Shown: positions 3-44,600, numbered from the stretch's first letter. The stretch is DNA of 64,000 nucleotides from an uncultured Acidobacteriota bacterium (GCA_963836075.1 CAWIIB010000001.1:1-64000), one strand, 5' to 3'. Notes: generated by a model not told the origin, from the sequence alone. Numbers and translations: made by a program.

Positions 3-2901
<2,899 letters not shown>

Positions 2902-19379: not shown

Positions 19380-20605
19380 GATCCAACTCCGATACAAAAT
19401 ATCTGCGTTTTCCACTTTCCATCCGGGGAATGTGCTTCGTGATCTCAAACTTCACATCCATGTCCGGGTGGATCCTCTCCCGGATCATCCCTCGGATGAA
19501 ATCCTGCAACCCCATACTCGTCCCTTCCCGTAGACTCATTTCGACCCGAATGACGTCAAGCCGGATCTGAACAAAGCGAAGCTGTTCAACGGAATCATAT
19601 CGTTTGACCAGTTCTTTCATGATGTATGAGAAAATGTTGCTGTGGACGCGACGTCCTCCCGGGGCTTTCACAATGTCGGACGACCGCCCGATTACATCCT
19701 CCATGACTCGGAATGGGAGGGAGCATGTGCAGATACCCAGCCCGTCTCCCCGAACCAAATCACCGGTATCATAGCGGATCAGGGGGTAGGATTGCGAATG
19801 AAGATTCGTAACGAGGATCCGAAACAATCCACTAGCTTCATCCTTTTCATACTCCACGTAAACACAGTCCTCCATGACATGGTGACTCCCATCCGGGTGC
19901 TGAAAGGAAATTACGCCTGTTTCAGCCGTCCCGTACTCGCTCACCACGGGGCATCCGAAGAAGGTACGGGCAAAATCCCTCTGATGTTCGGGCATCATTT
20001 CCGCCGTGTATTTGATGAGCCGAAGCGGGATGGCTGATGTGGAAAGACCCTCCCTGGCGCAGAAGCGGGCGAACTCGTAGATCAACGTGCCGTAGCCGCT
20101 CAGAAGGTGGGGTTGTCTGCGGACCATGGGACCGATAAAAATCCCGACATATCTCGTCGGATAGGTCAAAGGCCCGTTCCCGAAATCGGTTCAAGACAAA
20201 ATCCCTTGCACGGGCCATGATTGCATCCTTTCTGTCCAACGGGATTCCCCACAAGTAGGCTTCCCGGGCGCAGATATCCAGGCCGTGCCATCGCAAGCCC
20301 CTGTAAAGGGCCGCGTAACTGAGGGCCTTAACCTCCTTGTCACGATAAAACTTCAGCGGCTGCCGGTGGAACCTGAGGTCTTAGCGGAATAGATCCGCCT
20401 TACGTTTTCGGACAGGAGGCAATTCTGATTCTCCCGGATTGCGGCTTTGCTCAGCAAGGGGATCCGTCGAACATCCTCCGGCGTGGAAACCCGTTGTATG
20501 TTAACCCCGGCGCGGTCAAGGGTCTCCCGGTAGTAAGGAACGTTGTCGTAGGCATGTCGGAGGAGTCCAAGAAGTTTGTCAAACTGTTCCTGCTGAAATG
20601 TATAG
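19336..20605 (-). pseudogene. Second PaaK/CapK-like ligase, 5'-truncated and frameshifted
   Basis: HAYDNVPYYR, KTSGST, EYGTAETG, PLIRYDTGD, SGKRRYF. The 5' end is replaced by an IS91-like fragment. Confidence 0.8.
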
Positions 20606-21191
20606 GCATTCCTCTTCCCGGGGCAGCACTGCTCGCTCCTCTTGCTGGTATTTGACAGCCCACTCCGGCGGACCGTGAGCCCGGGGGACGACCGTGCTCA
20701 CCCCCAGGTGCTCGAGGATGCGGCGGATCACCTGGTCTTGAGATGTCCTGATGAACGAGATGATCTTCATCTCCGCCTCACAATTGGGGCAGCGTAGAAC
20801 TTCAATCTCGAACACCTGGCGCAGCAGCTGTGACCAGTTGCGCCTTCGCGTGCTCGCCGGTGGCGGGGGCTGACTCTGAACAGCCGCCGGCCCTTCTCTC
20901 TCCCGCCTCCTCCGCTCGGCCCGACTCCTCACCGAGTAGTATCCGTAGTCGCGAACCATCTGCACTCCTGGCGGCGGCACCTGCAGTGCCAGCAGCGACA
21001 GAAAGGTCAGCGCATTATACTGGGCCACCATCGGACGAACCCCTCCCGACTTCTTTGAGCTGCGCACGGTGACCGTGCCGCCGGCTTTGTCGTATTCCAC
21101 CCTTTCCGCAGACACCGCCGGACGGGCCAAGTAGCGCACTAGCCGCTTGAGACGACCGTAATCCCCCACCTCCACCTTCACCGAGCCGTCC
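20606..21191 (-). mobile_element. IS91-like transposase C-terminal fragment
   Basis: Close paralog of 34222-35106 (VRYLARPAVSAER, YGYYS, CPNC...MKIISFI), truncated at both ends. Confidence 0.85.
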
Positions 21192-21481
21192 GCAAGTTGC
21201 GAAAGGGCGGCTGGCCTTCATCGATCTGCGCGTGGGATCACAGGGCGCCACTGTGACAGCCAGCGACCCTGACACCTCCGTGGTGGTGGTACTACGGTAT
21301 GCGCAGTAGCACCGGTGAATGACCTGATGAGCCGGGCTAGGGGCTGCGACGGAGATGAGTTCCTCATAAGAATTTATGCAATATTTAACTGGAGGTGCCC
21401 ATGCTGATTCGTCTACTTGGATTGTTGGTAGGAGGGTGGTTCATGTTCGGTGCTGCAACACAAGCCTGGGCTGGTGAGTTA

Positions 21482-22149
21482 GTGCTCTGTTAAAGAACTC
21501 GGTTTGAGTTTTGCCGTTCGAAGAGTTTTTCGTCCTTGGCGTTCCTGTTTCGCCATCGGATGTATTCTTGCAACGCTTTTCCTATTTCGTCGTGATTCGC
21601 GTAGTCGCTGTTATTGATCACGAAGTGTCTTATCGGTGTGAAGTGGCATTCGATCCTGTTCATCCATGAAGCATAAGTCGCGGTGAAGACCAGGGTGATG
21701 TTGTTATCGTCGCAGTAGTCAACAACTTCCTCGCGTTTGTGCGGCGAGAAGTTGTCCAGAACGATGAAGATCTTTCGCCCATCGTCATATCGATTTCGGA
21801 TGGACTTGAAGAAGGCAAGTGTTTCATTCCATCGCTTTCGCTTCTTCTGGTGCATCCAGAGTTTATCTGTATGGACATCGTACGCTGCCAAATAGTGACG
21901 GACACCGTGCAGGCGCCTGTAAGTTGCTCGATGACGAATCGGCCTTCGCTGATAAGCCCAGGACGATCCGGCCTGTGGCCGAACCTCGATCGGGCCGAAC
22001 TCGTCAAAGCAGATTACCGATGACCCTTTCGGCGCTTTCCGGTAGAACCACGCAATGCGTTTTTTTTAGCATCGAACTCCGGATCGTTGGAGCGTGTCCA
22101 TGTCCGCGTTCGCTGAAACGAGACCTTCTCTTTCTTGAGAACGGAGCGA
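21482..22149 (-). mobile_element. IS630-family element, 3' half (DDE domain and right IR)
   Basis: DEFGP, IVLDNFSPH, ASWMNRIE. A7 slippery site near 22060-22067. IR GTGCTCTGTT follows a TA. Confidence 0.9.
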
Positions 22150-22233
22150 CTGGTCATCGGGAGTGCTTACAGTCCCCCTCAGGGCCTCGCTGCTGGGTTG
22201 TGATGAGGACGCCCAACCAGCCAACTTTGGTTA

Positions 22234-23139
22234 GAAGTGGTTTCATAACCCTCTGAGCGCTAACAGCGCACAGGCAAAGTGGATAAACGCCAGATACATT
22301 CTTGCTGAGTGTTCATATCGTACGATTAACCGTCTGAAGGATCCGAGCCATGCAATGGTTCTCTCAACGATCCAACGCTTTCGATACCGCCTCAGTTTCC
22401 TGCCGTCCTGCGTTGGCGGCTTCTTACGATTCCTACGATGGGGACAGATGAGCTCGATGCCTCTTTTTCCAAGCGCCTCTCGAAACGGATCACTATCGTA
22501 TGCTTTGTCTGCGATGAGTCGTTTGGGCTTGGTCTTCGGTCGTCCAGGTCCCCCTCTTGGTACTGATATCGTGGCTAACGTTTCCGGCGCGAGCTTGACT
22601 TCCGCTGGTGAGGCCGAGGCAATGGAAATTCCCAGAGGTAAACCCTTGCCGTCGACCACCACCATGCACTTCGAGCCCTTGCCCCGCTTGGTTTTGCCGA
22701 CTTTAGAGCCCCTTTTTTAGCTGGAGAGAAGGTGCCATCAATGAAGCATTCCTCCCAGTCTATTCGGCCGTCAACATCAAGCTCGCTGAGATATGCCCGC
22801 CACATCCTCAGCCATGTTCCGTCTTCTTCCCAAAGGCTTAATCGACGCCAGCAGGTCGAAGGGCTCGGATACTCTCGAGGAAGGTCGCGCCATCGTGCTC
22901 CAGTCTTGAGAACCCAGAGGATCCCATCGATCACATCACGGTTGCTGATCCAAGGGCGCCCTCCTCGCTTCGATTGCGGGAGCGGCGGTAACAACGGTTC
23001 GATCTTATTCCACTGCTCGTCAGTCAGCTTGATGCGTTTTCTGGCCATTCGGTTCACCTCCGAATAGCCTATTACCAGAATTGGATAAAAAGTACAAGTC
23101 CAAAGACTTAAATACGATCAGAGGTTATGAAACCACTTC
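22234..23139 (-). mobile_element. IS5-family (IS427 group) element, complete, two ORFs with probable programmed frameshift
   Basis: IRs GAAGTGGTTTCATAACC / GGTTATGAAACCACTTC with TA duplication. ORFs 22575-23057 (GARWRDLP, IDGT) and 22243-22665 (ADKAYD, RWIVER). Confidence 0.95.
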
Positions 23140-23156
23140 TAGATAGCCGTACAAAG

Positions 23157-23192
23157 CAACACCGGCCCAGGTAGTCCCGAGCCGGTGCTGTG
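23157..23192 (-). terminator. Hairpin just downstream of the 23200 stop (also in copies A and B)
   Basis: CACCGGC...GCCGGTG stem with only a weak U tail. Confidence 0.5.
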
Positions 23193-23199
23193 TTAGCGA

Positions 23200-25307
23200 C
23201 TATGGCGCGATCCCCGTCACCGTGCAGAAGGCAGTGTCAGTGTCGCCCGCCGGTGGATACGGAGGTTGGTTATATGGCGCCGGTGTTACGTCTTCGGCCA
23301 CAAAGGTAATGATGTTGTCCCCCACCAACGTTCCAAGGGCCGGAAGGTTCTGGTTCCAGGCCCATATGTAACTGTCCCCTCGCGATATGTTTGTGTACCC
23401 CGACCGCCAGTTAGCGAAATACCCACCCCCGCCGAGGGTGAGGTGGATCTTCGCCGCCAGCCACCGAATCTGGCCTCTGTATATGTTGGACAGTGTGGCC
23501 GTAATATGGATGGTGAAGGGTAGCGTGCCTGAGGAGGGCATGCAAGTCAGGTCAGCGGCGACCGTAGACGGGCATGGGACAGAAAGCCCATTTCCATGGT
23601 GGTAACCCATATCAACCATGCCGGTGTCGTTCACATGATCGATGCGGGTCGTGAAATCGCCCAGGCAGATTTCTCCGCCGGGCCCGTCGTAGCAGATGTT
23701 CTCCGCGAGGTCGCTGCCGGCGTCGATGCAGAGACTGTCATCTGCCTGCCCGGTGGCGATATGGCTGAGATAGGAACAGCCGTCGGGCCCAACGACAAAA
23801 TGCGGATCAGAATCAATATTGGTTTCTCCGGGATCAGGATATCCCCCATGAACGTCGGAATAGGTGACGAGTCCATCACACCCATCAATCTCATCCGGAT
23901 AATTGTCCCAGACAATGCAGTTCTCGATTACAGCCGATGACGTCTCACAGTAAACACCGCCACCATGCATTGATATATTTCCATCTCCGTAGTTGAGCAT
24001 AATTGTATTGTTTACTATCACAGGCGAGGAGTCCTCCCCACAGAAGATTCCCCCACCGTACCCATGCATCCCAGTAAACCCTATAATCATATTGCCTGAG
24101 ATTCTATTGTTAAATATTGTTGGTCCTGAATAACCTTGACACGCTATTCCGGCCCCACTCCTATTACTAAATTCACGGGGAAGAATCGAATTGTTGTAAA
24201 TGAGGTTGTTGGCGATGATTGGTGATGAATTATAGATATAAATACCACCACCACCTCCACTAGAGCTTTCATCTTCATATTTGAGGTCCAGATCAGACGC
24301 GGTACTCAAATAATTATCGCATATTGTATTATCAATTATTAGAGGTGAAGAGTTTGTCGTGCAGCTTATTCCCCCACCCGGTGCTCCATCGTAAGTGTAG
24401 TTTCCCGCTATTCTATTGTTCGATATTTCTGGAGATGAGTAATAATCGCAACAAATACCTCCACCATTTCCTAGATCAGTCCAATTGTGTTCAATTATAT
24501 TGTTGTGTATCTCAGGTGAAGAGCTGTCGCAGTATATGGCGCCTCCTCCTCCAAATATTCCATAGTTATCATGAATTATATTATCGCGAATAACTACATT
24601 TGAGTTTTCACAATATATGGCACCTCCACGTACCAACGCGAAATTCGAATAAATTATATTATTTTGGATGTTTGCATTGGAATTATCACAATGAATTCCG
24701 CCACCATCTCCCTCTGTACCTATTATCATATATAATGTTTCCCAGAATAATCGGATCTGAATTCAGGCAATGGATACCTCCTCCAGCGTTGTCACTATAA
24801 TCGACGACGAATCCACGAATGATATTGTTTTCGATTGTTGGAGAGGAACCTTCACACCGTATTCCGCTTGACCCATAAAGCGTAGAGCCTGTACTGAATC
24901 GTAAACCCCCTGACAATTGATCCGGGGCCCTCATCAGTGTGGAAGAAAAAGCAGGGAACCGCAGGGTCTTCAACTTCGATCACACAGTTCTCAGACCCAT
25001 TTTCCGATTGCAAGATGATCTCCTTGCCGAAGTAATCCAGATCTCGATTCCCAACTCCGCAGTAGGTGCCATCGGCAACTTGGACATTATCGCCACTCAA
25101 GGCGACGTTAAGCCCCTCCTGGATCGCATCGAAGGGATGTTCGACCGAGCCGTCCTCCAACTGATCGCTAACGCTAGGATCGCCTGGCCCGGGATCATTC
25201 GGGGCATCATCATCCACATACCAAGTGGTCTGTGCGTGTGACGGCATCGCGAGTGCAAGGCTAGCAACCGACAGGACGAGTGCGAGGAAGAGGCATCTGC
25301 TGTTCAT
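23200..25307 (-). CDS. Secreted right-handed parallel beta-helix protein with distinct C-terminal domain (frameshifted)
   Basis: Signal peptide MNSRCLFLAL...SHA, WYVDDDAP, PFDAIQEG, many GGGIxC..SSPxI repeats, tail EDVTPAPYNQPPYPPAGDTDTAFCTVTGIAP. Confidence 0.85.
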
Positions 25308-25525
25308 TGTGTTCCCCTTTAGAAGCATGGGTTCTCCAGGACAGGAGAAAATGGCCGGTACGCCATAAAAAATCTTGGACTGAATATATGTTTCTTGTCT
25401 GAAACAGTCAAGACGACACGCCTGCTCAGAAGGCCCCATAGGCCAATTTCCTGAATAAAATGTGCTTATGGCTCCCTCCTGGAAACGCAGATCCTCTTCC
25501 CCCCATCCACCCCCGTCCCCAAAAC

Positions 25526-25873
25526 CTAAGGGAGTGGTAGCAGCTACCATTTGCCGACTAAGGTGTGCCCCGGACAAAACGTCAGCCGATCGCTAGAGTT
25601 GCTACCTGCCTCGGGAGGGCGGTCGGACAGTCTCGGAGGGGTCAGGTATGGGTTGGCCGTGAGGATGCGTACAGGCCCCCTCAGGGCCTCGCTGCGGGGC
25701 TGTGGTGAGGAATATCAGCCGGCGGGCGCGGAGATGGATGGCCCTACATAGCAACACCGGCCCAGGTAGTCCCAAGCCGGTGCTGTGCTGTCCGTTAGGG
25801 TGCGATCCCCGTCACCGTGCAGGTGGAGTGTCGGTGTTTCCGATCAGTTCGTCATCCGGCGGTATGGCTCCGT
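25526..25873. repeat. Conserved intergenic element, copy A
   Basis: Colinear with 28801-29140. Palindrome TGGTAGCAGCTACCA at 25535-25549. Confidence 0.88.
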
Positions 25874-28374
25874 TCAGAACCTTCCCGCCGCCACGTTGGT
25901 TCCGTGGGTCATGCCAGGGAATGCCTCCAGCGAGAACCACTCGGTCACCTGTGACCCGTCGTATTGGAACACCTTCACCTCGGTGCCGGCGTCAGGATCA
26001 GGGCCACAGCCCACCACCAACTCGTCCCGGCCGTCGCCGTCAAGGTCGGCCCCGGCAAAGACATTCGGCGCCGATACCGAACCTCAGTCGGCGGCCAGGC
26101 AAAGAAACTGAGCCCGGGCAGTGGTGTTACCGAAGATCCGTCATAGTTCCAGCCCCGCACGTGGGCGCCGAAAACAGCGCCCGGCCCGGGACCGGTGACG
26201 ATCTCGTCGATGCCGTCACCGTCCACGTCTCCGCAGGTGACGTTCACCCCATATTTCAGGGTGCCGTAAGCAAAGAAGCTGACACCCGGGCATAGCCGCG
26301 GCCGTGCCACCGTCCACGTTCCAGCCCCGGACGTGTGGTCCGTAAACGGCCCCGGGACCGGCGCCAGTGACGATCTCGTCATAGCCGTCACCGTCGATGT
26401 CACCGGCTGAGACATTCACACCCCACTTGGGTGTGCCGTAGGCGAAGTAGCTCACTCCAGGCACCGGTGTCACCCCGGGCGTGCCATCGTAATTCCAGCC
26501 ACGAACGTGCGGGCCGAACACCGCGCCCGGGCCGGCACCGGTGATGATCTCGTCGAACCCGTCAGCCGTCGATGTCGCCGGCGGCCACATTAACGCCCCA
26601 CTTGTTGTGTGCCATAGGCCATGAAGCTCAAACCGGTCAGCGGCGTCCCGTCCACCTGGAACCCCCGCACGTGGGGCCCGTAGATGTCTCCCGGGCCGGC
26701 GCCGGTGAGGATCACGTCCCCGCTGCCGCCAGTCACCCGTCCGCAGCTCATGTTCACCCCGTAGTGCGGGGCGCCGTACGCGGCGAAGATATAGATCGGT
26801 CCGCTGCCCTGCTCCGGCGGGAAGACGCGCACCTCCGGCGAGTTGGTGTAATCCGGGCCCGGGCCGGCGGCAATGAAGGTATCGGTGTTGGCGACCGTGA
26901 GGCTCACCGGCACGGTTTGCGGCGAATTCACCGCATCGGGGTCGGTAATGGTGATGGTGGCGTTGTAAACGCCCGACTGCAGGCCGGTGGCGTCCACCGC
27001 CACTGTCACCGGGTCATGTTCGCCGGTGGAACTGCCCGAAGCGGGCGAGAGGGAGAGCCAGCCGGAGTTCTCCGAGGCGGCCCAGTTCAGCGTGCCCTTG
27101 CCTTCGCACCAGATCTCCAGGGTTTGCGCCGACGGCGGCGGCCCGTCTTCCAGCGCGCTGAAGGCGAGGCTGTCCGGGGCGAAGGCGATGCTGTATTCAT
27201 CCGGCGCGGTGACAGTGAGACTCACCTGCACGGTTTGCGGAGAGTTCAGAGCCCCGGGATCTTCGATGCTGATTGTGGCCGAGTAGATGTCGGGAGAGAG
27301 ACCGCTGACATCGACACTGACCATCACATTGTCCTGCTCACCCGCGGAACTCCCCGAAAGGGGCTGCAGGGTGAGCCAGGCTGCATCGTCGCTCACCGTC
27401 CACTGGAGCGTCCCCTCACCGCTGCGCCAGATACCCAGGCTCTGATCCGCCGGGTCCGGTCCGCCGAAGGAGGCGGTGAAGGAGAGGCTGGAGGGGGAGA
27501 AGGCAATGGAATATTCGTCAGAGCCGGACCCCCATGCCGGCGATGCGGGCCAGCATCCACCAGAAAGCCCTGCCCTTGAGATTGCAGTTCAGAGGCTGGG
27601 AGTGTGCGCAGGCGCAGTCGGTAGCAGAGCGGGCTGCCGGGGTTTTCGGCGCACCACTCGTCGGCCCAGTTGCCACCATCGTAGTCGCAGCTATCGTTGG
27701 CAAAAAGATCTCGGAAGTAGTCGCCGTCCGGGTCGTAGCTCTCGATGTCGGCAAAATCGAAGAGGACCTTGTTGTTGGCAGCGCAGAAATCGCGGATCTG
27801 GTTGTTGCGTTGGAAGAGGTTTCCTGCTTCGCCGGTGCCGTTGAGATGGCCGGTCATATAAACGAAGGTGATGTCCGGGTAGTCTGCTCAAGGCCATCCA
27901 TCAGTCCGAGGTAATGTCGATGTTCTCTGCTGTGGTGTCGGCCTGGCCGCACCAGGACCAGATGACCACATTGCGGTCGCTCCCCGGGCCGTCGAGGTGG
28001 ATCCGCGTGCGTGTCGCCCAGTAGGTATAGTCCGGGTTTCCCAGGTCACCCTCCGGTGTATTATCGTCAAGAGAGAGTACGCCGGGCTCCACATCCCCGT
28101 TATCATTGAAATCGTAGAGACCTCCGTGGCTCGGATCGTCCATCAGCACTTGCATTCCAGCGATGGGCTGGCTTCCATGTGACGAGTGGCCGTAGCAAAT
28201 CCGAAGCTGGTCTTTTGCCGCCACAATCCATTCTTCGGGAATGTCTTCGAGGATGGTGCAAGTGTGGTCACTGATGATCGGTGCCGAGCGCTCGGTCGCA
28301 GCTAGCGGATAGGCGGCGATGAAAAGGGCCGGGGCGAGGCAGAGAATGAAAAAAACACGACTGGGCATATTCAC
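25874..28374 (-). CDS. Secreted modular protein: hydrolase-like domain, 2 BACON/Ig-like domains and FG-GAP-like repeats (multiple frameshifts)
   Basis: Signal peptide, YGHSSHGSQ, WSWCGQ, MTGHL, LFDFADIES, two WLxLxPxSGSS repeats, repeated GDxDGDGxDEIxTGxGPGAVxGPHVRGWNxDG, end HGTNVAAGRF*. Confidence 0.8.
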
Positions 28375-28800
28375 GAACTGTTCCTCCAGGATATACGGTG
28401 CTTCATCCGGGAACTGTTGCTACGCCGCTAGATGAAGCCGATTCCCTACCCTATTTTGGCTAAAATTAAGATCACCATCCCGAGGACAAAAACCCTTACG
28501 ACCTCTCCGGCTGTGAATATCACAGCACCTGCAGTATGACAGAAGGAGGCAGTATCCAGGCAAGCCGAGAGGGCCTGCACTTGTCATGATGTGAATATAG
28601 GTGCTTACTCGTGAAAGGGCAAGGGGGAGGGAATAAACATGACAAGCCCAAGTCCGCATGCCCCGATGTAACAGCTACTCGCCATGTCGATACCCAACGG
28701 AATATCCCCATAGACAAAATTTTCGCCACAAATGTGTGCAGTGCACCATCCAGAATAAGGAAACCGCATCCCCCTGATCTCCCCCCCCTCCCTGTTCCCG

Positions 28801-29140
28801 AAGGAAGTGGTAGCTGCTACCACCTTGCTGAGCGGGGCCACCCTGGATAGATCGTGAGCCAGTTGGTGGAGTTGATCCCTGCCTCTGGAGGGCGGTTGGA
28901 TGGTCTATGAGGGGTCGAGGCATGGGCTGGTCAATGGGATGCGGACAGGCCCCCTCAGGGCCTCGCTGTACGTCTGCGTAGAAGACTATCACCCGCCGTG
29001 CGTGGCTAAATGGCCGTCCAAAGCAACACCAGCCCAGATAGTCCCGAGCCGGTGCTGTGCTGTCGGTTAAGGTGCGATCCCCGTCACCGTGCAGGTGGCG
29101 GTGGTATCGATCATCTTGTCATCCGGCGGTATGTCTCCGT
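28801..29140. repeat. Conserved intergenic element, copy B
   Basis: Perfect palindrome GTGGTAGCTGCTACCAC at 28807-28823, GGCCCCCTCAGGGCC, the hairpin, and the orphan gene tail. Confidence 0.88.
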
Positions 29141-29476
29141 TCAGAAACTCCCCGCCGCCACGTTCACACCGTGGGTCATGCCCTCGAACGCCTCCAGCGA
29201 GAACCAGAGGGTCTGACCAGAGCCATCGTATTCGTAGACCTTAACCTCAGTGCCAGCATCCAGGTCAGGATCGCAGCCCACCACAATCTCATTCCAGCCA
29301 TCGCCGTCAAGGTCTGCCCCGGGGAAGACTTTGGCGCCATACCGCAGGTCATCCGGGGACCAGGCGAAGAAGTTGATCCCGGAGATCGCCGACAGGTCCG
29401 CTCCATCATAGTTCCAGCCCCGCACATGGGGACCGAAAACTGCACCAGGGCCGGCACCGGTGATGATCTTGTCGAA
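29141..29476 (-). pseudogene. 3' fragment of a second FG-GAP-like repeat gene
   Basis: GPGAVFGPHVRGWNYDG...THGVNVAAGSF*, paralogous to 25874-26220. It is fused abruptly to the first codons of an unrelated ORF starting at 29490. Confidence 0.8.
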
Positions 29477-29490
29477 GGTACGCTGCTCAT

Positions 29491-30622
29491 CTATTCACCC
29501 GCCCCCATAAGGGTGTCGATTTCAGCGGTCTCTCCGCCGCATTTCCGGATCTTCCAAACTCCCCACGTCAGCACCGGAATCACGAATATGATGAGGAAAA
29601 TCCAGGTGAGTTTTCCGTAACCCTGTGCGATGAGTCCGATCAACCCGAATTGCGCTAGCAGCGCTCCAGCTACTAGTAGCACAATTGCAGTGACTGGTCG
29701 GATGAACAAAGGCATCGAGGCATCCCTCTCGGCATACACCTTTGCGATTCGCTCATTCACCGCATGAATCAATCCTGTCCCGGTCTCGACCAAGGTTCCA
29801 AACAGCACAACCTGGAAAACCAACTGGAAACTGCGGGACCCGATCAACTCCAGGAGATAGTTCGCTGGAACGGTACTTGTCAGGATGACCGGATACTGCC
29901 CGACCATCGTCATATAAAACAGGAACCCCGGCACGATCGCGATTGGTCCGGCCAGGAGGCCCGCCGTAATCGCTTCCTTCCGGGATTGCATGTGGCGGGT
30001 GCAGAACAACACGGCCGGTATGACCGCCAGGTTGTAGGCGGCGTACCTCACGCCGCCGATGGGCCATGTGCTGCTGCATTCACCTGATGCGAGCGCGGAG
30101 ATTGTATCCCCGCCAAACTTCGTGAATGCCCATACGAAAAACACGATGTACACACCATACAATAGGAATGACCAACCAGCGAGGAATTTCTCGATCGTTC
30201 CGCTTCCGCGGAACACCAAATATCCAACGCATGCCATCATGCCGATCACACCGACCGCGTAGTGCAGTCCGAATGTCTCCTGTAGGATCGATCCGGCTGC
30301 CGCGGCGATCACGGCAAGAATAATCAGCACCAAAGCGAAGTAGCAGATCTCAAACGACGGCCATGCCCACCCGAGCAGCTGACGGAAGAAATTTCTGTAG
30401 TCGTAAGCCCTGAACACGCGCGCGAACTCGAAGCTGCTGGCACACACCGCACTCCATATCACCGTCGATACCAACAGCATTGCGAGCAGCCCGCCCAGAG
30501 GGCCCTCACTGAGGAAGAACTCTGCAAGTTCGCGGCCTGTTCCGTACCCACCCGCGATCACAACGGACTGAAATACAAATCCGGGCAGGAAGTACCTCTG
30601 GAAAACCGAAGACTTGCTCACG
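29491..30622 (-). CDS. YkvI-like multi-pass membrane protein (putative amino acid permease)
   Basis: VVIAGGYGTGRELAEFF motif and about 10 TM helices. Start codon uncertain. Confidence 0.8.
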
Positions 30623-30780
30623 TTGGTGTTCCTCTCGATATATGAGGGGCAGAGGTCACGTGCCGTGCTTGATCGCACTGCGTGCCCCCTCGGTTGAAAG
30701 TATTTAAAATGCACTCGACGCCTATCGATAACGTATCCTATATTTCGCACTTTTCGTTGAGCCTGGTGAGGTGCCCAAAG

Positions 30781-30890
30781 AGGTGGCCCTCAATCTGGTT
30801 TGAAATGTTGTCGCTGGACAAACATAACAGCCAGAAGGAGAACCACCATGAGCAAGGATGATTTTACATCAAAAGAGCTGGACCGGTTCA
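30781..30890 (+). mobile_element. Probable truncated left end of an IS (IS256-like?)
   Basis: AGAAGGAG RBS and MSKDDFTSKELDRF, cut off at the IS630 junction. Family is a guess. Confidence 0.3.
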
Positions 30891-31389
30891 GAATCGTCGT
30901 ATGGCTGACCGGCGGAATCATCTTGGTGTCTTGCACGAGGAACTTCTGCAGTTTGCGCAGGGACCATTGGTTGAACGGCCGACCAAACGCCTGGGGAGGA
31001 GCGGTCGCAATCTCGGCAATGACGGACCGATCCTCCTCGGTCAGCACTTCCGGCCGGTTGGTCCGCCGACGCGGCTTGATTGCATCGAAACCTTCGTCGT
31101 TGAATCGGCGAATCAGTTCCCTGATGTACTCCTCGTGCATCCTGAGATGAATAGCGATCTCCTGGACGCGCATCCCTTGAGAACTGAACGCAATAATCTG
31201 TCCGCGGCGCATCCTGGTCGCGCTCTTCGAGCGCTTGAGCCATGATGAAAGCGTGTTGGACTCGGAGAATGTAAGATCCCGGACATACAGGCACATGGAA
31301 ATCCCCCTCCTCTGTAGGTTGGCTTAACCATGTGGATGTATGTAACATATTGTTTTTTAAAGTACAAGTCTACTTTTAGAACAGAGCAC
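30891..31389 (-). mobile_element. IS630-family element, 5' half (HTH domains and left IR)
   Basis: RRGQII..S.QG...IRRFNDEG...WSLRKL...VSHTTI. IR AACAGAGCAC followed by TA. Confidence 0.9.
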
Positions 31390-31606
31390 TAGGTGCTGAC
31401 CTGCTCATGGCATCTTTGATGGGAGCATCTTTTATCGTTTACGGGATCGGCGGGCAAGAGCTGCTGGAGCGGGTCGCCCCCCAGCTCTCCGAGGCGTACC
31501 AGGACAAGAAGGAAGAGATGGCGCTGTTTAGCTGTAAAAGCCCATGACAAGGCGGCCACCTGCTGCTGAGCACCGCGAATACAGCCGCCGAGGGATCAGG
31601 TCAGCT

Positions 31607-34214: not shown

Positions 34215-35331
34215 GGTCAGGGTGGGGATGGTTGTGGTGCCCCAGCGCTTCGGTGACCGGGTCAACCCCCACATTCCCCTCCATGCTCTGTCGAGTGGCG
34301 GGGCCTTCGACTCCGCTGGCGTCTTCCACCCGATGCCCTTCGACATGCAGGGGGACATCGAGGTGCTCGAGCGGCTGTTCGCCAAGCGGGTGCTCGACCT
34401 GATGGTGCGGCGAAAGCGCCTGAATACACGACTTCGCGACGAGATGCTGACGTGGGAGCACAGCGGGTTCTCGATGGACGGATCGGTCAAGGTGGTGGTG
34501 GGGGATTACGGGCGCCTAAGAAGGCAGGTCCGCTACCTGGCCCGTCCGGCGGTGTCGGCGGAGCGGGTGGCGTATGACAAGGCCGGCGGCACGGTCACCG
34601 TGCGAAGTTCGAAGAAGGTGCACGGAGTCCGCCCGGTGGTGGCCCAGTATGACGCGCTGACCTTCCTGTCCCTGCTGGCGCTGCAGGTGCCGCCGCCCGG
34701 GGTACACATGGTGCGCTACTACGGCCACTACTCGGTGCGGAGCCGGGCCGAGCGGAGGAGGAGGGCAGGGGAGGGGCCGGCGGCTATGCACAACGAAGCC
34801 CCACCGCCGGCGAGCGAGCGGCGGCGGCGCTGGGCGGAGTTGATCCGCCTGGTGTTCGAGGTTGATCCCTTGCGCTGCCACAAGTGCGGGGGCGAGATGA
34901 AGATCATCTCGTTCATCACCACGGCCCAGGACGAGGTGATCCGCCGCATCCTCGAGCACCTGGGGGTGAGCACGGTCGTTCCCCGGGCCCACGGGCCGCC
35001 CGAGTGGGCGGTGAAAAGCGAGCAGGCGGTTCAGGAGGCGTCGTCCCGGGACGAGGAGGACTTTTCGCAGGCGCCGCCCGGTTGGGACGAGTGGGAGCCC
35101 GCGTGAGACCCGGATCAGGGAGCGAGGACCCTTGGGGGACGACTCCGTTCGAATCACTCTTCGTCGCGGGCGATTCTCGTCATCGGGTCACGATCCCCCT
35201 CGTTGATCAGTCGGGGGCGCACCCACCAGCGGACAACCGGTCGATTTCCGCAGGAAAGCCCCTTCAGGTTCGACCAGCACGCTCTCATCCGGCATGAGCG
35301 GCTTGACGCTCGGAAAGGAAATCCCTTCTAT
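34215..35331 (+). mobile_element. IS91-like (single-Tyr HUH) transposase, 5'-truncated, with downstream end
   Basis: ORF 34222-35106: QRFGDRVNPH..HAL, HSGFSMD, RYLARP, RYYGHYS, CHKCGGEM. The end motif GGAAAGGAAATCCCTTCTAT(C) resembles ori-side ends of this group. Confidence 0.85.
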
Positions 35332-42781: not shown

Positions 42782-44600
42782 CTAGGTTTTTTTTCGCCTA
42801 TACCGTTGCTGGGGATCTCGGTAGTTCTTTGCGGGCACCCCGGAATCCGATGACGCGGGCCGGGTTTCCGGCCAGGATGGAGAAATCCTTGTAGCGTTTC
42901 CGCCCACCATCGCCTCGGCCGAGACCACGCACCCTCGACCCAGGTGAGTGCCGGGCATGATGAACGAGTTGGCTCCCAGCCAGACGTCGTCCTCGATGAT
43001 CACCGGCTTGAACTCCTGCCCCTGGTCTGCGATCAGCACCTCGGGGTCGGCGAATTGGTGGTTTGATGTCCAGATCGACACACCGGGCCCGAGGAGGACA
43101 GCGTTGCCGAAGGTCAGGCCACGCGTAAGCTTCCCCGTCAAGTGGACATTTCTAAAGTAGAGTTTCCGGCGTTCTGGTCTTTCCCTGAAGACCGTCGGTG
43201 GCAGTCCTCCCAGGGCGTCATGGGGACGCTCTTCGTTGTAGGTGATCAGCCACTCCCAGGTGATCTCCCGCACCTGATCAAGATCGTCGAACAGGTAGGT
43301 GCTCAGCACTTCATCCCGATAGGTCCGGTTGAACCGTTCGATGTAAGCGTTCTGGTTCGGCTTGCCCGGCTGGATGTAACGGATCTCGACGTCGTTCTCC
43401 TCGCACCAGTCGACGAAGACCTGGCAGGTCAGCTCAGGCCCATTGTCGCAGCGGATGGCTTCGGGAAGGCCGCTGCCATCCTTCATCCGCTCCAGAACGC
43501 GGACCACCCGCTCGCCCGGGAGCGAGGTATCGATCTCGATGTCCAGGCACTCACGGACGCCCTCGTCGAGCACGTTGAACGTCCGGAACCGCCGGCCAAC
43601 GTAAAGCGTGTCGTGCATGAAGTCGATCGACCAGACAGCATTGGCAACTGCCGGAACATCCAGCGGCTGCCGCTCTCTGGTCGGTATCCGTTTCTTTGTC
43701 CGGCGTTTGTGGTTCAAGCCCAGCTCCTTGTAAACCCGGTACACCCGCTTGTGGTTCCACCGCTGGCCATCGAAGCGAAGCTGCTTGATAGCACTTCCAG
43801 AAGCCCCAGCGACGGTGCTTCTCAGCAAGCTCCTGCAAGAGCCTCGATGACCTCGCCGATCCCGGGCCAGCTTGTCCTGCAGCGGCTTGTACCATGCGGA
43901 CCGGGAGAGCCCGACGAGCCTGACAGGCCCGAGTTACCGATAAGCTTCTTCTCCGCCACCAGATACCTAGCGGCTTCTCTTCGTTCCGGTGGCGTCAGAG
44001 CTTTTTTGAGATCAGATCCTTCAGCGCGTCGTTTTCAAGGCTCAGATCGGCGTACATCCGCTTCAGCTCGGCGTTCTCGAGCCTCAAGCTCCTTGATCCG
44101 CTTCAGCTCGGAGGCCGCCAGGCCACCGTACTTCGACTTCCACTTGTAGTAGGTGGCAGGGCTGATGCCATGCTTGCGACAGACGTCCTGGACGGTGATC
44201 CCGGCATCGGCTTCGTTGAGGATCGATACGATCTGGGTCTCGGTGAATCTGCGACTTCTTCATCTGAACCTCCTGGCTACTATTATGCCAGAAAGCTCTA
44301 CTTGCTCGTGTCTACCATATGGGGGAGCTTACGCCACCACCGGCCTGGATCATCACCCCCAAACCGATGTGGCAGCGGTCGCCCATGGAGAACTTTCCTG
44401 GGTTGCGGATGAAGACTTTGTTGTGGAATTTTGCCTCGGCACCCATCGACTTGAGCCACTTGCGGTAGAAACGGAGCCTCAGCCGCTGACCGATGTAGAA
44501 AGGGACCAGTGAGTAGAGAGGTCTCCAAAACAAAGTTTCTCCGCGACTCCACGGGCGTTTGATAACCGAGCTTTTTGCGTATTCTGCTGTAAGCGAACGC
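42782..44600 (-). pseudogene. Hexapeptide-repeat acyltransferase interrupted by IS3 (5' end also abuts an IS3)
   Basis: Removing the IS gives IQAGGG-LTFGNAVLLGPGVSIWTSNH...IIEDDVWLGAN. Confidence 0.85.
43123..44334 (-). mobile_element. IS3-family (IS407-like) element, complete
   Basis: IRs GCGTAAGCTTCCCC / GGGGAGCTTACGC with a (C)CAC duplication. OrfA RFTETQI...YYKWKSKYGG. OrfB WSIDFMHD, DNGPE, QNAYIERFN. Confidence 0.93.

Follow-up and report, generated by a model that had tools for sequence, protein, structure and literature searches.

An IS630-family element split by an 8.7-kb mosaic of broken pieces in an uncultured Acidobacteriota genome

The interrupted element and its surroundings

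Within a stretch of 64,000 nucleotides from an uncultured Acidobacteriota bacterium (the window, from whose first letter all positions are counted), we analysed an IS630-family element that spans 21482-31389 on the minus strand and is interrupted by 8,741 bp of other DNA. The locus lies 21 kb from the contig start, in a 45-kb stretch that is poor in ORFs and rich in IS, where the coverage by long ORFs in the first nine 5-kb bins is 0.15-0.90 against a genome median of 0.97. The region also holds pieces of IS91, IS3 and group II introns, and its neighbour outside the element is a 5'-truncated IS91-family (Y2_Tnp) transposase fragment (20579-21191, minus strand) with a fuller inverted copy at 34222-35106 (plus strand). 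Besides flanking the region, IS91-family genes occur often in this genome, which has six or more IS91-like copies; elsewhere, one IS110-family gene (on contig C9) and three Y1 transposase genes are present. The assembly consists of 10 contigs with an estimated contamination of 4.6%, and the identity of its small contigs C3-C5 to parts of C9 (82-86%) points to a second strain in the bin.

Both ends of the element and its TA duplication are intact, as the preliminary description had claimed. On the left, TA (21480-21481) precedes GTGCTCTGTT (21482-21491), and on the right AACAGAGCAC (31380-31389) is followed by TA (31390-31391); these 10-nt terminal repeats are perfect, and the longer 27-nt arms are 74% complementary. 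TA likewise stands on both sides of the two intact copies known, one on C9 and one in a same-genus genome (G001:C60). The 5' part (30891-31389, minus strand) comprises the terminal repeat, a 92-nt leader and the HTH DNA-binding part of the transposase, and the 3' part (21482-22149, minus strand) comprises the end of orfA, an A8 frameshift site, the DDE_3 catalytic part and a stop codon that overlaps the terminal repeat. Pfam models HTH_32, HTH_23 and HTH_28 match the N-half and DDE_3 the C-half (1.8e-11), and the NCBIfam profile NF033545 (IS630) is covered at positions 1-92 by the N-half (56.9 bits) and at 137-299 by the C-half (92.6 bits), either half on its own scoring under the cut-off of 100 bits. 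Judged by sequence, the combination of HTH and DDE_3 domains, TA duplication and short terminal inverted repeats makes the split element an IS630-family member, and a new one, no full-length relative having been found closer than 89-95%. It shares these features, together with a length of about 1.17 kb, with IS630/Tc1-mariner elements such as ISY100 of Synechocystis, whose insertions fall nearly always at TA and duplicate this dinucleotide (PMC2170065). Unlike those elements, the copy here is interrupted by 8.7 kb at a GA dinucleotide and is consequently unable to make transposase.

The break points, as assembled, fall at 22149/22150 and 30890/30891. The N-terminal half of the transposase (30891-31296, minus strand) ends ...VSHTTI, and the C-terminal half resumes as RSVLKKEKVSFQR from 22148 downward. 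The earlier statement that the halves rejoin perfectly holds in that the rejoining is gapless and needs correcting in that the ORF shifts frame at the A8 run; this frame change is shared by all three known copies (split, C9 and G001), which indicates a programmed shift rather than damage. The IS630 family uses frameshifting or transcriptional realignment, as stated in PMC5009743.

Both halves map onto the intact C9 copy with a 2-nt overlap and zero gaps, and they also align gaplessly to the intact copy in G001. Therefore the intact element has one GA where the split copy has one at each junction (22148-22149 on the left), so that the proposed splitting without loss of a base, with GA common to both junctions, is borne out. 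As about 16% of blunt insertions would be expected to show such a 2-nt identity by chance, GA alone proves neither target duplication nor microhomology. By eye, neither the reconstructed joint nor the target shows dyad symmetry about GA. The outer flanks, which had been described as rejoining into one open small gene, do form 78 open codons; their status as a gene is unsupported, the only homologue found among 5.8 billion proteins, also for its right part, being the ORF itself.

A mosaic of broken pieces

The insert (22150-30890) is a mosaic of broken pieces rather than a gene set or, on the reading preferred below, a mobile element, and sequence comparison finds no terminal repeats in it, in agreement with what had been noted before. 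Its ends cut through other elements, again as described. The left-terminal 82 bp (22150-22231) are a truncated local repeat unit with fuller copies at 25510-25733 and 28783-29005; homology to these two copies starts exactly at the junction, and in the alignment the two stay alike further left. The right junction cuts an ORF 14 codons after its start (MSKDDFTSKELDRF; 30848-30890, plus strand), which is preceded by GGAG as a ribosome-binding site. The ends thus appear arbitrary, a reading that these comparisons support. On folding of both strands, the left end formed no terminal hairpin (z +0.7 and +0.7), and the right end folds only modestly better than shuffled sequences (z -1.3 and -2.47 for the two strands); the terminal sequences of the insert have no other match in the genome. 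A Pfam search of 100 six-frame segments of the insert detected no recombinase remnant, and nothing beyond beta-helix and FG-GAP domains. The description of the insert as lacking a recombinase of its own accordingly stands apart from one nested IS5-family transposase. Separately, a group II intron as the insert is argued against by Rfam, which gave no match in 15000-37000 at E up to 0.1.

Among the pieces are two genes for secreted proteins, both predicted to be pseudogenes. That for a right-handed beta-helix protein (23200-25240, minus strand) is spread over three frames (ORFs 24852-25577, 24686-24973 and 23200-24729). The other (25883-28374, minus strand; Pfam FG-GAP and BACON_2) was delimited by tblastn with an intact 742-aa paralogue (C1:1235443-1237668), which matches it in frames -3, -1, -2, -3 and -2, i.e., with at least four frame changes. 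The positions of the cargo frame changes that were inspected lie outside homopolymer runs, which speaks against sequencing error as their source, although error may still play a part. A partial duplicate (77%) of 25525-26210, made up of the repeat unit and a C-terminal FG-GAP fragment, occupies 28798-29476 (minus strand) and is truncated at about 29476. Filler follows at this internal breakpoint (29479-29542) and contains, at 29513-29539, a 27-nt inverted copy (24/27) of 27291-27317; apart from the filler itself, no sequence in the genome matches it better than that source, 2.2 kb away (E = 0.004 genome-wide for the patch). An ORF of 419 aa (29491-30750, minus strand) would encode a multi-pass membrane protein with no Pfam family. 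Its DNA homology to relatives is confined to 29543-30614, the native 3' end of the gene having been replaced and lost at 29543.

The nested element (22232-23141, minus strand) has two overlapping ORFs and a perfect 19-nt terminal inverted repeat that includes the TA duplication. With matches to Pfam DUF4096 and DDE_Tnp_1 and to NF033580 (127.7 and 117 bits, cut-off 110), it is assigned by prediction to the IS5 family. It is a single copy in the genome, its pieces occur in contigs of other metagenomes with 0 differences (X1 and X6) or, for one piece in X2, with 1 difference, and it is very recent. This element, with its TA duplication, is a true example of nested or 'intercalated' IS, in which a later insertion interrupts an element that keeps all of its own sequence. 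The main insert resembles that class in this respect and differs from it in lacking transposase-defined ends, terminal repeats and a family-typical target duplication.

Relatives of the element and of its cargo

The genome holds one intact IS630 copy (C9:1420855-1422020, 1,165 bp), which has the same two-frame ORF layout as the split copy and one mismatch in its terminal repeats. Identity to this copy is 94% for the N-half (5' part) and 89% for the C-half (3' part), that is, a divergence of 5.6% vs 11.1% (Fisher p = 0.001). The three copies have the same topology for each half, the split copy lying outside the pair formed by C9 and G001; substitutions in the N- and C-half number 18 and 46 unique to the split copy, 9 and 26 unique to C9, and 8 and 9 unique to G001. 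The N-half is also the less diverged one in the comparison of C9 with G001 and on each branch, a skew explained by unequal rates along the element. An origin of the halves from distinguishable IS630 copies had been named as what would refute the description; the shared topology, together with the skew on every branch, speaks against it and for a single source. On the branch of the split copy, 36 substitutions are synonymous and 23 non-synonymous (22% synonymous would be expected under random change), and no additional stops have arisen in the split ORFs. From this ratio and the lack of extra stops we infer that the interruption is probably young compared with the 6-11% by which the copies diverge. 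Relatives occupy differing sites in this genome, G001 and sediment metagenomes, an indirect sign that members of this group may have transposed.

Each end of the IS was found exactly twice in the genome (24 nt, at most 4 mismatches), in this element and in the C9 copy, and no second copy of the cargo is present there. A genome-wide scan for sequences intact at one place and split at another returned 10 candidates, of which the only IS630 case is this locus. Four metagenomes in which uninterrupted relatives of the IS occur yielded no part of the unique cargo. The membrane-protein gene is absent from both same-genus genomes (G001 and G002), where a search with 23142-25900 and 27200-30890 gave only paralogue-level matches of 64-91%. 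Recurrence of the unit at further sites with target duplications of their own was thus not found in the genome, in G001 and G002 with these parts of the insert, or in the four metagenomes. In none of the public sequencing runs does the share of the locus's sampled words exceed 9%, and in the four runs examined that share is made up of the IS5-family element and of relatives of the FG-GAP and IS630 genes; it does not come from this organism.

A search of the two same-genus genomes for the empty site gave no match to the right flank, and for the left flank a match to the IS91-like part only. For a donor locus, relatives of the membrane-protein gene occur in 7 of 40 same-phylum genomes, with no common context; its two closest metagenome relatives (84% aa) have differing upstream neighbours and a common downstream neighbour that is missing here. 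A degenerate back-translated pattern of the 14-codon ORF had no match in GTDB species genomes.

Origin of the split and its significance

We favour, with confidence a little above even, the view that a one-off illegitimate (non-homologous) insertion of a block of chromosomal DNA inactivated an IS630 element in a decaying region. An IS630-family IS would have inserted at TA, and a single precise non-homologous insertion of chromosomal DNA would later have separated the DNA-binding half of its transposase gene from the catalytic half. The block would have comprised secreted-protein genes that are broken and paralogous, together with short filler and a fragment of a gene from another place, and the very young IS5-family element would have landed in it afterwards. 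The most likely route would be repair- or replication-associated illegitimate recombination, by template switching or by joining at a 2-nt staggered break, and the same process appears to have scrambled both the 45 kb around the block and its interior. The internal junctions that speak for this view are the end of the FG-GAP fragment at about 29476, the inverted patch that follows it and the loss of the membrane-gene 3' end at 29543; the templated patch lends it weak support. Filler-DNA and other templated repair insertions share with the locus arbitrary ends, a junction identity of 0-2 nt and an inverted patch from nearby at an internal junction. In such insertions target bases are usually lost and the length is far below 8.7 kb, and the locus further differs from them in that no donor copy is left in this genome. 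More generally, illegitimate insertions usually lose or add target bases, and the cleanness of the join therefore counts against this explanation, a loss-free join with a 2-nt duplication being what a transposase or a serine recombinase leaves. As no Ku gene was found in the genome (0 matches, the control in B. subtilis being positive), capture by classical end-joining is unlikely and a less well-defined route must be assumed; as the genome has no second copy of the block, a template switch of the copying type needs a lost or foreign donor.

The join is what would be expected if the block were the remnant of an integrative element that entered by the 2-bp crossover of a serine recombinase, loss-free insertion with the same dinucleotide at both junctions being the signature of a 2-nt staggered exchange. 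Elements of the Tn4451/Tn5397 type presumably use GA, and the recombinase gene could have been lost, the interior of the block having been rearranged since insertion. We nevertheless hold this origin to be unlikely: the six-frame segments of the insert contain no Resolvase-domain match, PF00239 has 0 matches in the entire genome (the control was positive in 12 of 14 genomes), the block begins on the left inside a repeat unit whose two other copies run further leftward, and GA is flanked by no dyad visible by eye and would match by chance at the rate given above. Delivery by IS91/ISCR (HUH) rolling-circle one-ended transposition or by IS110-type core recombination is disfavoured, and its probability is very small. 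These families leave no or very short target duplications, and genes of the IS91, IS110 and Y1 kinds are at hand in the genome, those of IS91 also around the region; yet the block contains no Y2, Y1 or DEDD transposase or remnant, its ends resemble neither any IS91-like copy nor anything else in the genome, and the left end has no hairpin (z = +0.7) and the right only a modest one (z = -2.5). IS91 moreover targets a specific tetranucleotide, which by eye adjoins neither junction. Of the suggestion that an arbitrary block was captured into the IS, the loss-free split and the arbitrary-looking ends stand, and the HUH and IS110 routes lack their defining enzyme in the block. That the 8.7 kb was misplaced inside the IS during assembly we regard as highly improbable. 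The proximity to the contig start, the ORF-poor stretch, the number of contigs, the contamination estimate and the suspected second strain would fit such an artefact, and the structure is known from the assembly alone; misjoins through repeats, however, fall at repeat boundaries and not at one internal point with exactly complementary junctions and a 2-nt overlap, and a collapse of two copies is unlikely because the other IS630 copy is only 89-94% identical.

The locus is shaped like an IS-bounded cassette and gives no sign of movement as a unit. A working non-autonomous IS630 cassette of 9.9 kb, moved in trans by the C9 transposase and perhaps already loaded on arrival, seems improbable to us. 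Its ends are complete, flanked by TA and better preserved than those of C9, an intact copy of the same layout could supply the enzyme, an IS630-family transposase alone moves end-defined mini-elements in vitro according to PMC2170065, and IS derivatives of this kind form a recognised class (PMC3129680). Against this stand the restriction of the IS ends to two copies, the single copy of the cargo, its absence from metagenomes with uninterrupted relatives, and the missing membrane-protein gene and merely paralogous matches in the same-genus genomes; moreover, nothing selects for a cassette whose cargo is pseudogenes. Tc1/mariner-type transposition also drops steeply with element length. The idea that a 9.9-kb transposon could move secreted-protein genes is thus unsupported, those genes being predicted pseudogenes and the unit single. 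Still more doubtful is a nascent IS-bounded cargo cassette, in which DNA was copied or joined into IS630, the ends stayed undamaged and the sister copy could still mobilise the whole. As in MICs and transporter IS, the class with passenger genes described in PMC3129680, IS ends bracket DNA unrelated to transposition and an intact cognate IS in the genome could act in trans; in contrast to them, the unit here keeps both transposase halves, its passengers are pseudogene fragments, and it is single, where such elements are recognised by their recurrence as units.

Under the illegitimate insertion that we prefer, the locus documents a clean and datable IS inactivation in an uncultured sediment bacterium, within a plasticity zone of polysaccharide genes, and its value is mostly that of genome archaeology. 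The wider interest lies in the origin of IS derivatives with passenger DNA, for which loss-free capture inside an IS is one possible start; with a single copy, a broken cargo and a structure taken from an assembly, this locus cannot tell process from accident. If a cassette origin were true, it would be a prokaryotic counterpart of gene capture by eukaryotic non-autonomous DNA transposons, and would open a way to MICs and transporter IS for which a second, flanking IS is not required.

The split IS630 element and its intact relatives

In the source genome (6.2 Mb in 10 contigs, the window being the first 64 kb of C1), an IS630-family element runs on the minus strand from 31389 to 21482, with ends GTGCTCTGTT and AACAGAGCAC and a TA beside each. 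Its 5' part (30891-31389, minus strand; N-half) encodes HTH domains and its 3' part (21482-22149, minus strand; C-half) a DDE_3 domain. Both halves map onto the one intact IS630 copy of this genome, at C9:1420855-1422020, with an overlap of 2 nt, and once joined they align with it without a gap. The structure proposed in the preliminary description, an IS630 split without loss of bases, was thereby borne out in full. The search for intact copies also yielded a third, TA-flanked one in a same-genus genome (G001:C60). In all three, orfA is followed by an A8 run and then by orfB, which lies in the -1 frame, and because of this shared layout the frame change in the C-half is attributed to the programmed shift described as an IS630-family trait (PMC5009743); its reading as damage was ruled out. 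The split element adds a new member to the IS630 family.

The interrupting block and its setting

The insert (22150-30890, 8,741 bp) is a mosaic of pieces, and its GC content per 500-nt window varies between 0.41 and 0.68. At its left edge stands a truncated repeat (22150-22231, 82 bp), the right-hand part of a unit of roughly 225 bp with fuller copies at 25510-25733 and 28783-29005; homology of the 82-bp piece to these begins exactly at the junction, and the fuller copies remain alike for at least 60 columns further left. At the unit's far end, downstream of the secreted-protein genes, there is a perfect hairpin with an 8-bp stem (GTGGTAGC / GCTACCAC; 25534-25552 and 28805-28823), a possible terminator or hotspot of recombination. 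Beyond an IS5-family element (22232-23141) lie a beta-helix secreted-protein gene (23200-25240) spread over three frames and an FG-GAP/BACON gene (25883-28374) that passes through frames -3, -1, -2, -3 and -2 when compared with an intact 742-aa paralogue. Because the latter family has about 129 loci in the genome, this portion of the cargo is native to the lineage. A stretch of ~130 nt (28395-28524), lying on the upstream side of this FG-GAP gene, may be a small repeat element. It has no second copy in its own genome, and in G002, another same-genus genome, five or more places match it (77-91%), of which three share a contig and one is ~2 kb away from an IS91-like gene.

Further right, a partial duplicate (28798-29476), 77% identical to 25525-26210, stops abruptly and is followed by a filler (29479-29542) containing a 27-nt inverted copy (24/27) of 27291-27317, the filler's best genome-wide match besides itself (E = 0.004). 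DNA-level homology of the membrane-protein gene (29543-30614) to its closest relatives, 84% identical in amino acids and located on two metagenome contigs, is limited to this range, and their downstream neighbour is missing at this locus; the gene is absent from G001 and G002. The right junction cuts through a plus-strand gene start (30848-30890) comprising a ribosome-binding site and 14 ORF codons.

The surrounding region, 1-45000, is poor in long ORFs, with a cover of 0.15-0.90 in the first nine 5-kb bins of C1 against a genome median of 0.97 (5th percentile, 0.76), and contains frameshifted polysaccharide-synthesis genes together with IS3-family pieces; glycosyltransferase, MBOAT, AraC and other genes are among those frameshifted. 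Either this is a decaying plasticity zone, or island of polysaccharide genes, or the region is poorly polished. Two IS91-family (Y2_Tnp) pieces, at 20579-21191 (minus strand, cut at 21191) and 34222-35106 (plus strand, 80% identical to the former), are inverted with their 5' ends inward and bracket 13 kb that includes the split IS630. At the extreme start of C1, an ORF (800-2347, plus strand; RVT_1, GIIM) encodes a group II intron reverse transcriptase/maturase and probably accounts for the contig's end at that point, and the minus-strand ORF at 42782-43828, combining an IS3-type integrase core (rve, rve_3) with hexapeptide-transferase repeats, is probably an IS within, or fused to, an acetyltransferase gene. 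Elsewhere, stretches of 4-8 kb in C3, C4 and C5 show 82-86% identity to C9 regions, some differing by ~850-930 bp insertions, and may mean that the bin contains a second strain, or a second species.

Origin of the insertion and mobility of the unit

What the locus shows is a single insertion, without loss of bases, of a DNA block whose ends are arbitrary. We infer that a repair- or replication-linked illegitimate event placed the block in the IS630, because similar junctions occur inside the block itself, and one of them carries a templated inverted patch. Simple end-joining is disfavoured by the clean join and the lack of any Ku match in the genome. Most of the remaining probability is held together by four rivals. 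A decayed element with a 2-bp crossover would account for the GA common to both junctions; this GA may stem from the filling-in of a 2-nt stagger, from microhomology or from chance (16% of blunt insertions). The insert has no terminal direct or inverted repeats, none of its 100 six-frame segments matched a recombinase or transposase family (100 of 111 segments of at least 45 aa, the other 11 being ORFs scanned separately), and no Resolvase domain was matched in the genome. For HUH or IS110 routes, one IS110-family gene and three Y1 transposase genes exist in the genome, all away from the locus; the insert's two terminal stretches have no genome matches, six or more IS91-like copies included, and its ends carry no convincing hairpins. 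No Rfam family falls within 15000-37000. The third rival is misassembly. Uninterrupted IS630 relatives occur in metagenome contigs (joint 22147 to 30891 in X2 and X4; one 1,371-nt contig in X6), and the flanks find little in the same-genus genomes (left, the IS91-like part only; right, no match). When the whole genome was scanned for sequence that runs uninterrupted at one site and is divided at another, 10 candidates came up, and this locus was the sole IS630 case; three were insertions of 848-931 bp, and the other two with inserts >10 kb joined paralogous stretches just 80-82% identical.

The fourth rival is a cassette mobilisable in trans. End-defined mini-elements can, according to PMC2170065, be moved by an IS630-family transposase, and the 9.9-kb unit (IS630 plus insert) is shaped like the mobile insertion cassette or transporter IS of PMC3129680; both classes are defined by recurrence as a unit, and here the unit does not recur. 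Each IS630 end (24 nt, up to 4 mismatches) was found only at the split locus and the intact C9 copy, so that the genome holds no MITEs or sister cassettes, and unique cargo was absent from contigs of the four metagenomes compared (e.g., bin 29808-30174, depth 0 in all). The earlier idea of a transposon moving secreted-protein genes is unsupported.

Age of the interruption

The nested IS5-family element (perfect 19-nt ends, TA duplication included) is a single copy in the genome. Pieces with 0 differences occur in contigs of a salt-marsh (X1) and a sediment (X6) metagenome from separate studies, and a marine-sediment metagenome (X2) has a 414-nt piece with 1 difference, the remainder of that contig lying off the compared stretch. 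It is a very recent arrival in the insert and looks like an IS currently spreading.

The split copy differs from C9 at 28/499 sites in the N-half and 74/667 in the C-half (Fisher p = 0.001), a skew also present against G001 (27/499 and 57/667) and between C9 and G001 (18/499 and 37/667). Copy-unique sites in the two halves number 18 and 46 for the split copy, 9 and 26 for C9, and 8 and 9 for G001, making the split copy the outlier in both; the three-copy comparison, which addressed the concern that the halves derive from distinguishable copies, thus gave no sign of this. Substitutions on the split branch comprise 36 synonymous and 23 non-synonymous changes (random expectation, 22% synonymous), and neither half carries extra stop codons, which argues that the split copy was probably a working, selected IS for most of its branch and that the interruption would be young relative to the 6-11% divergence between copies.
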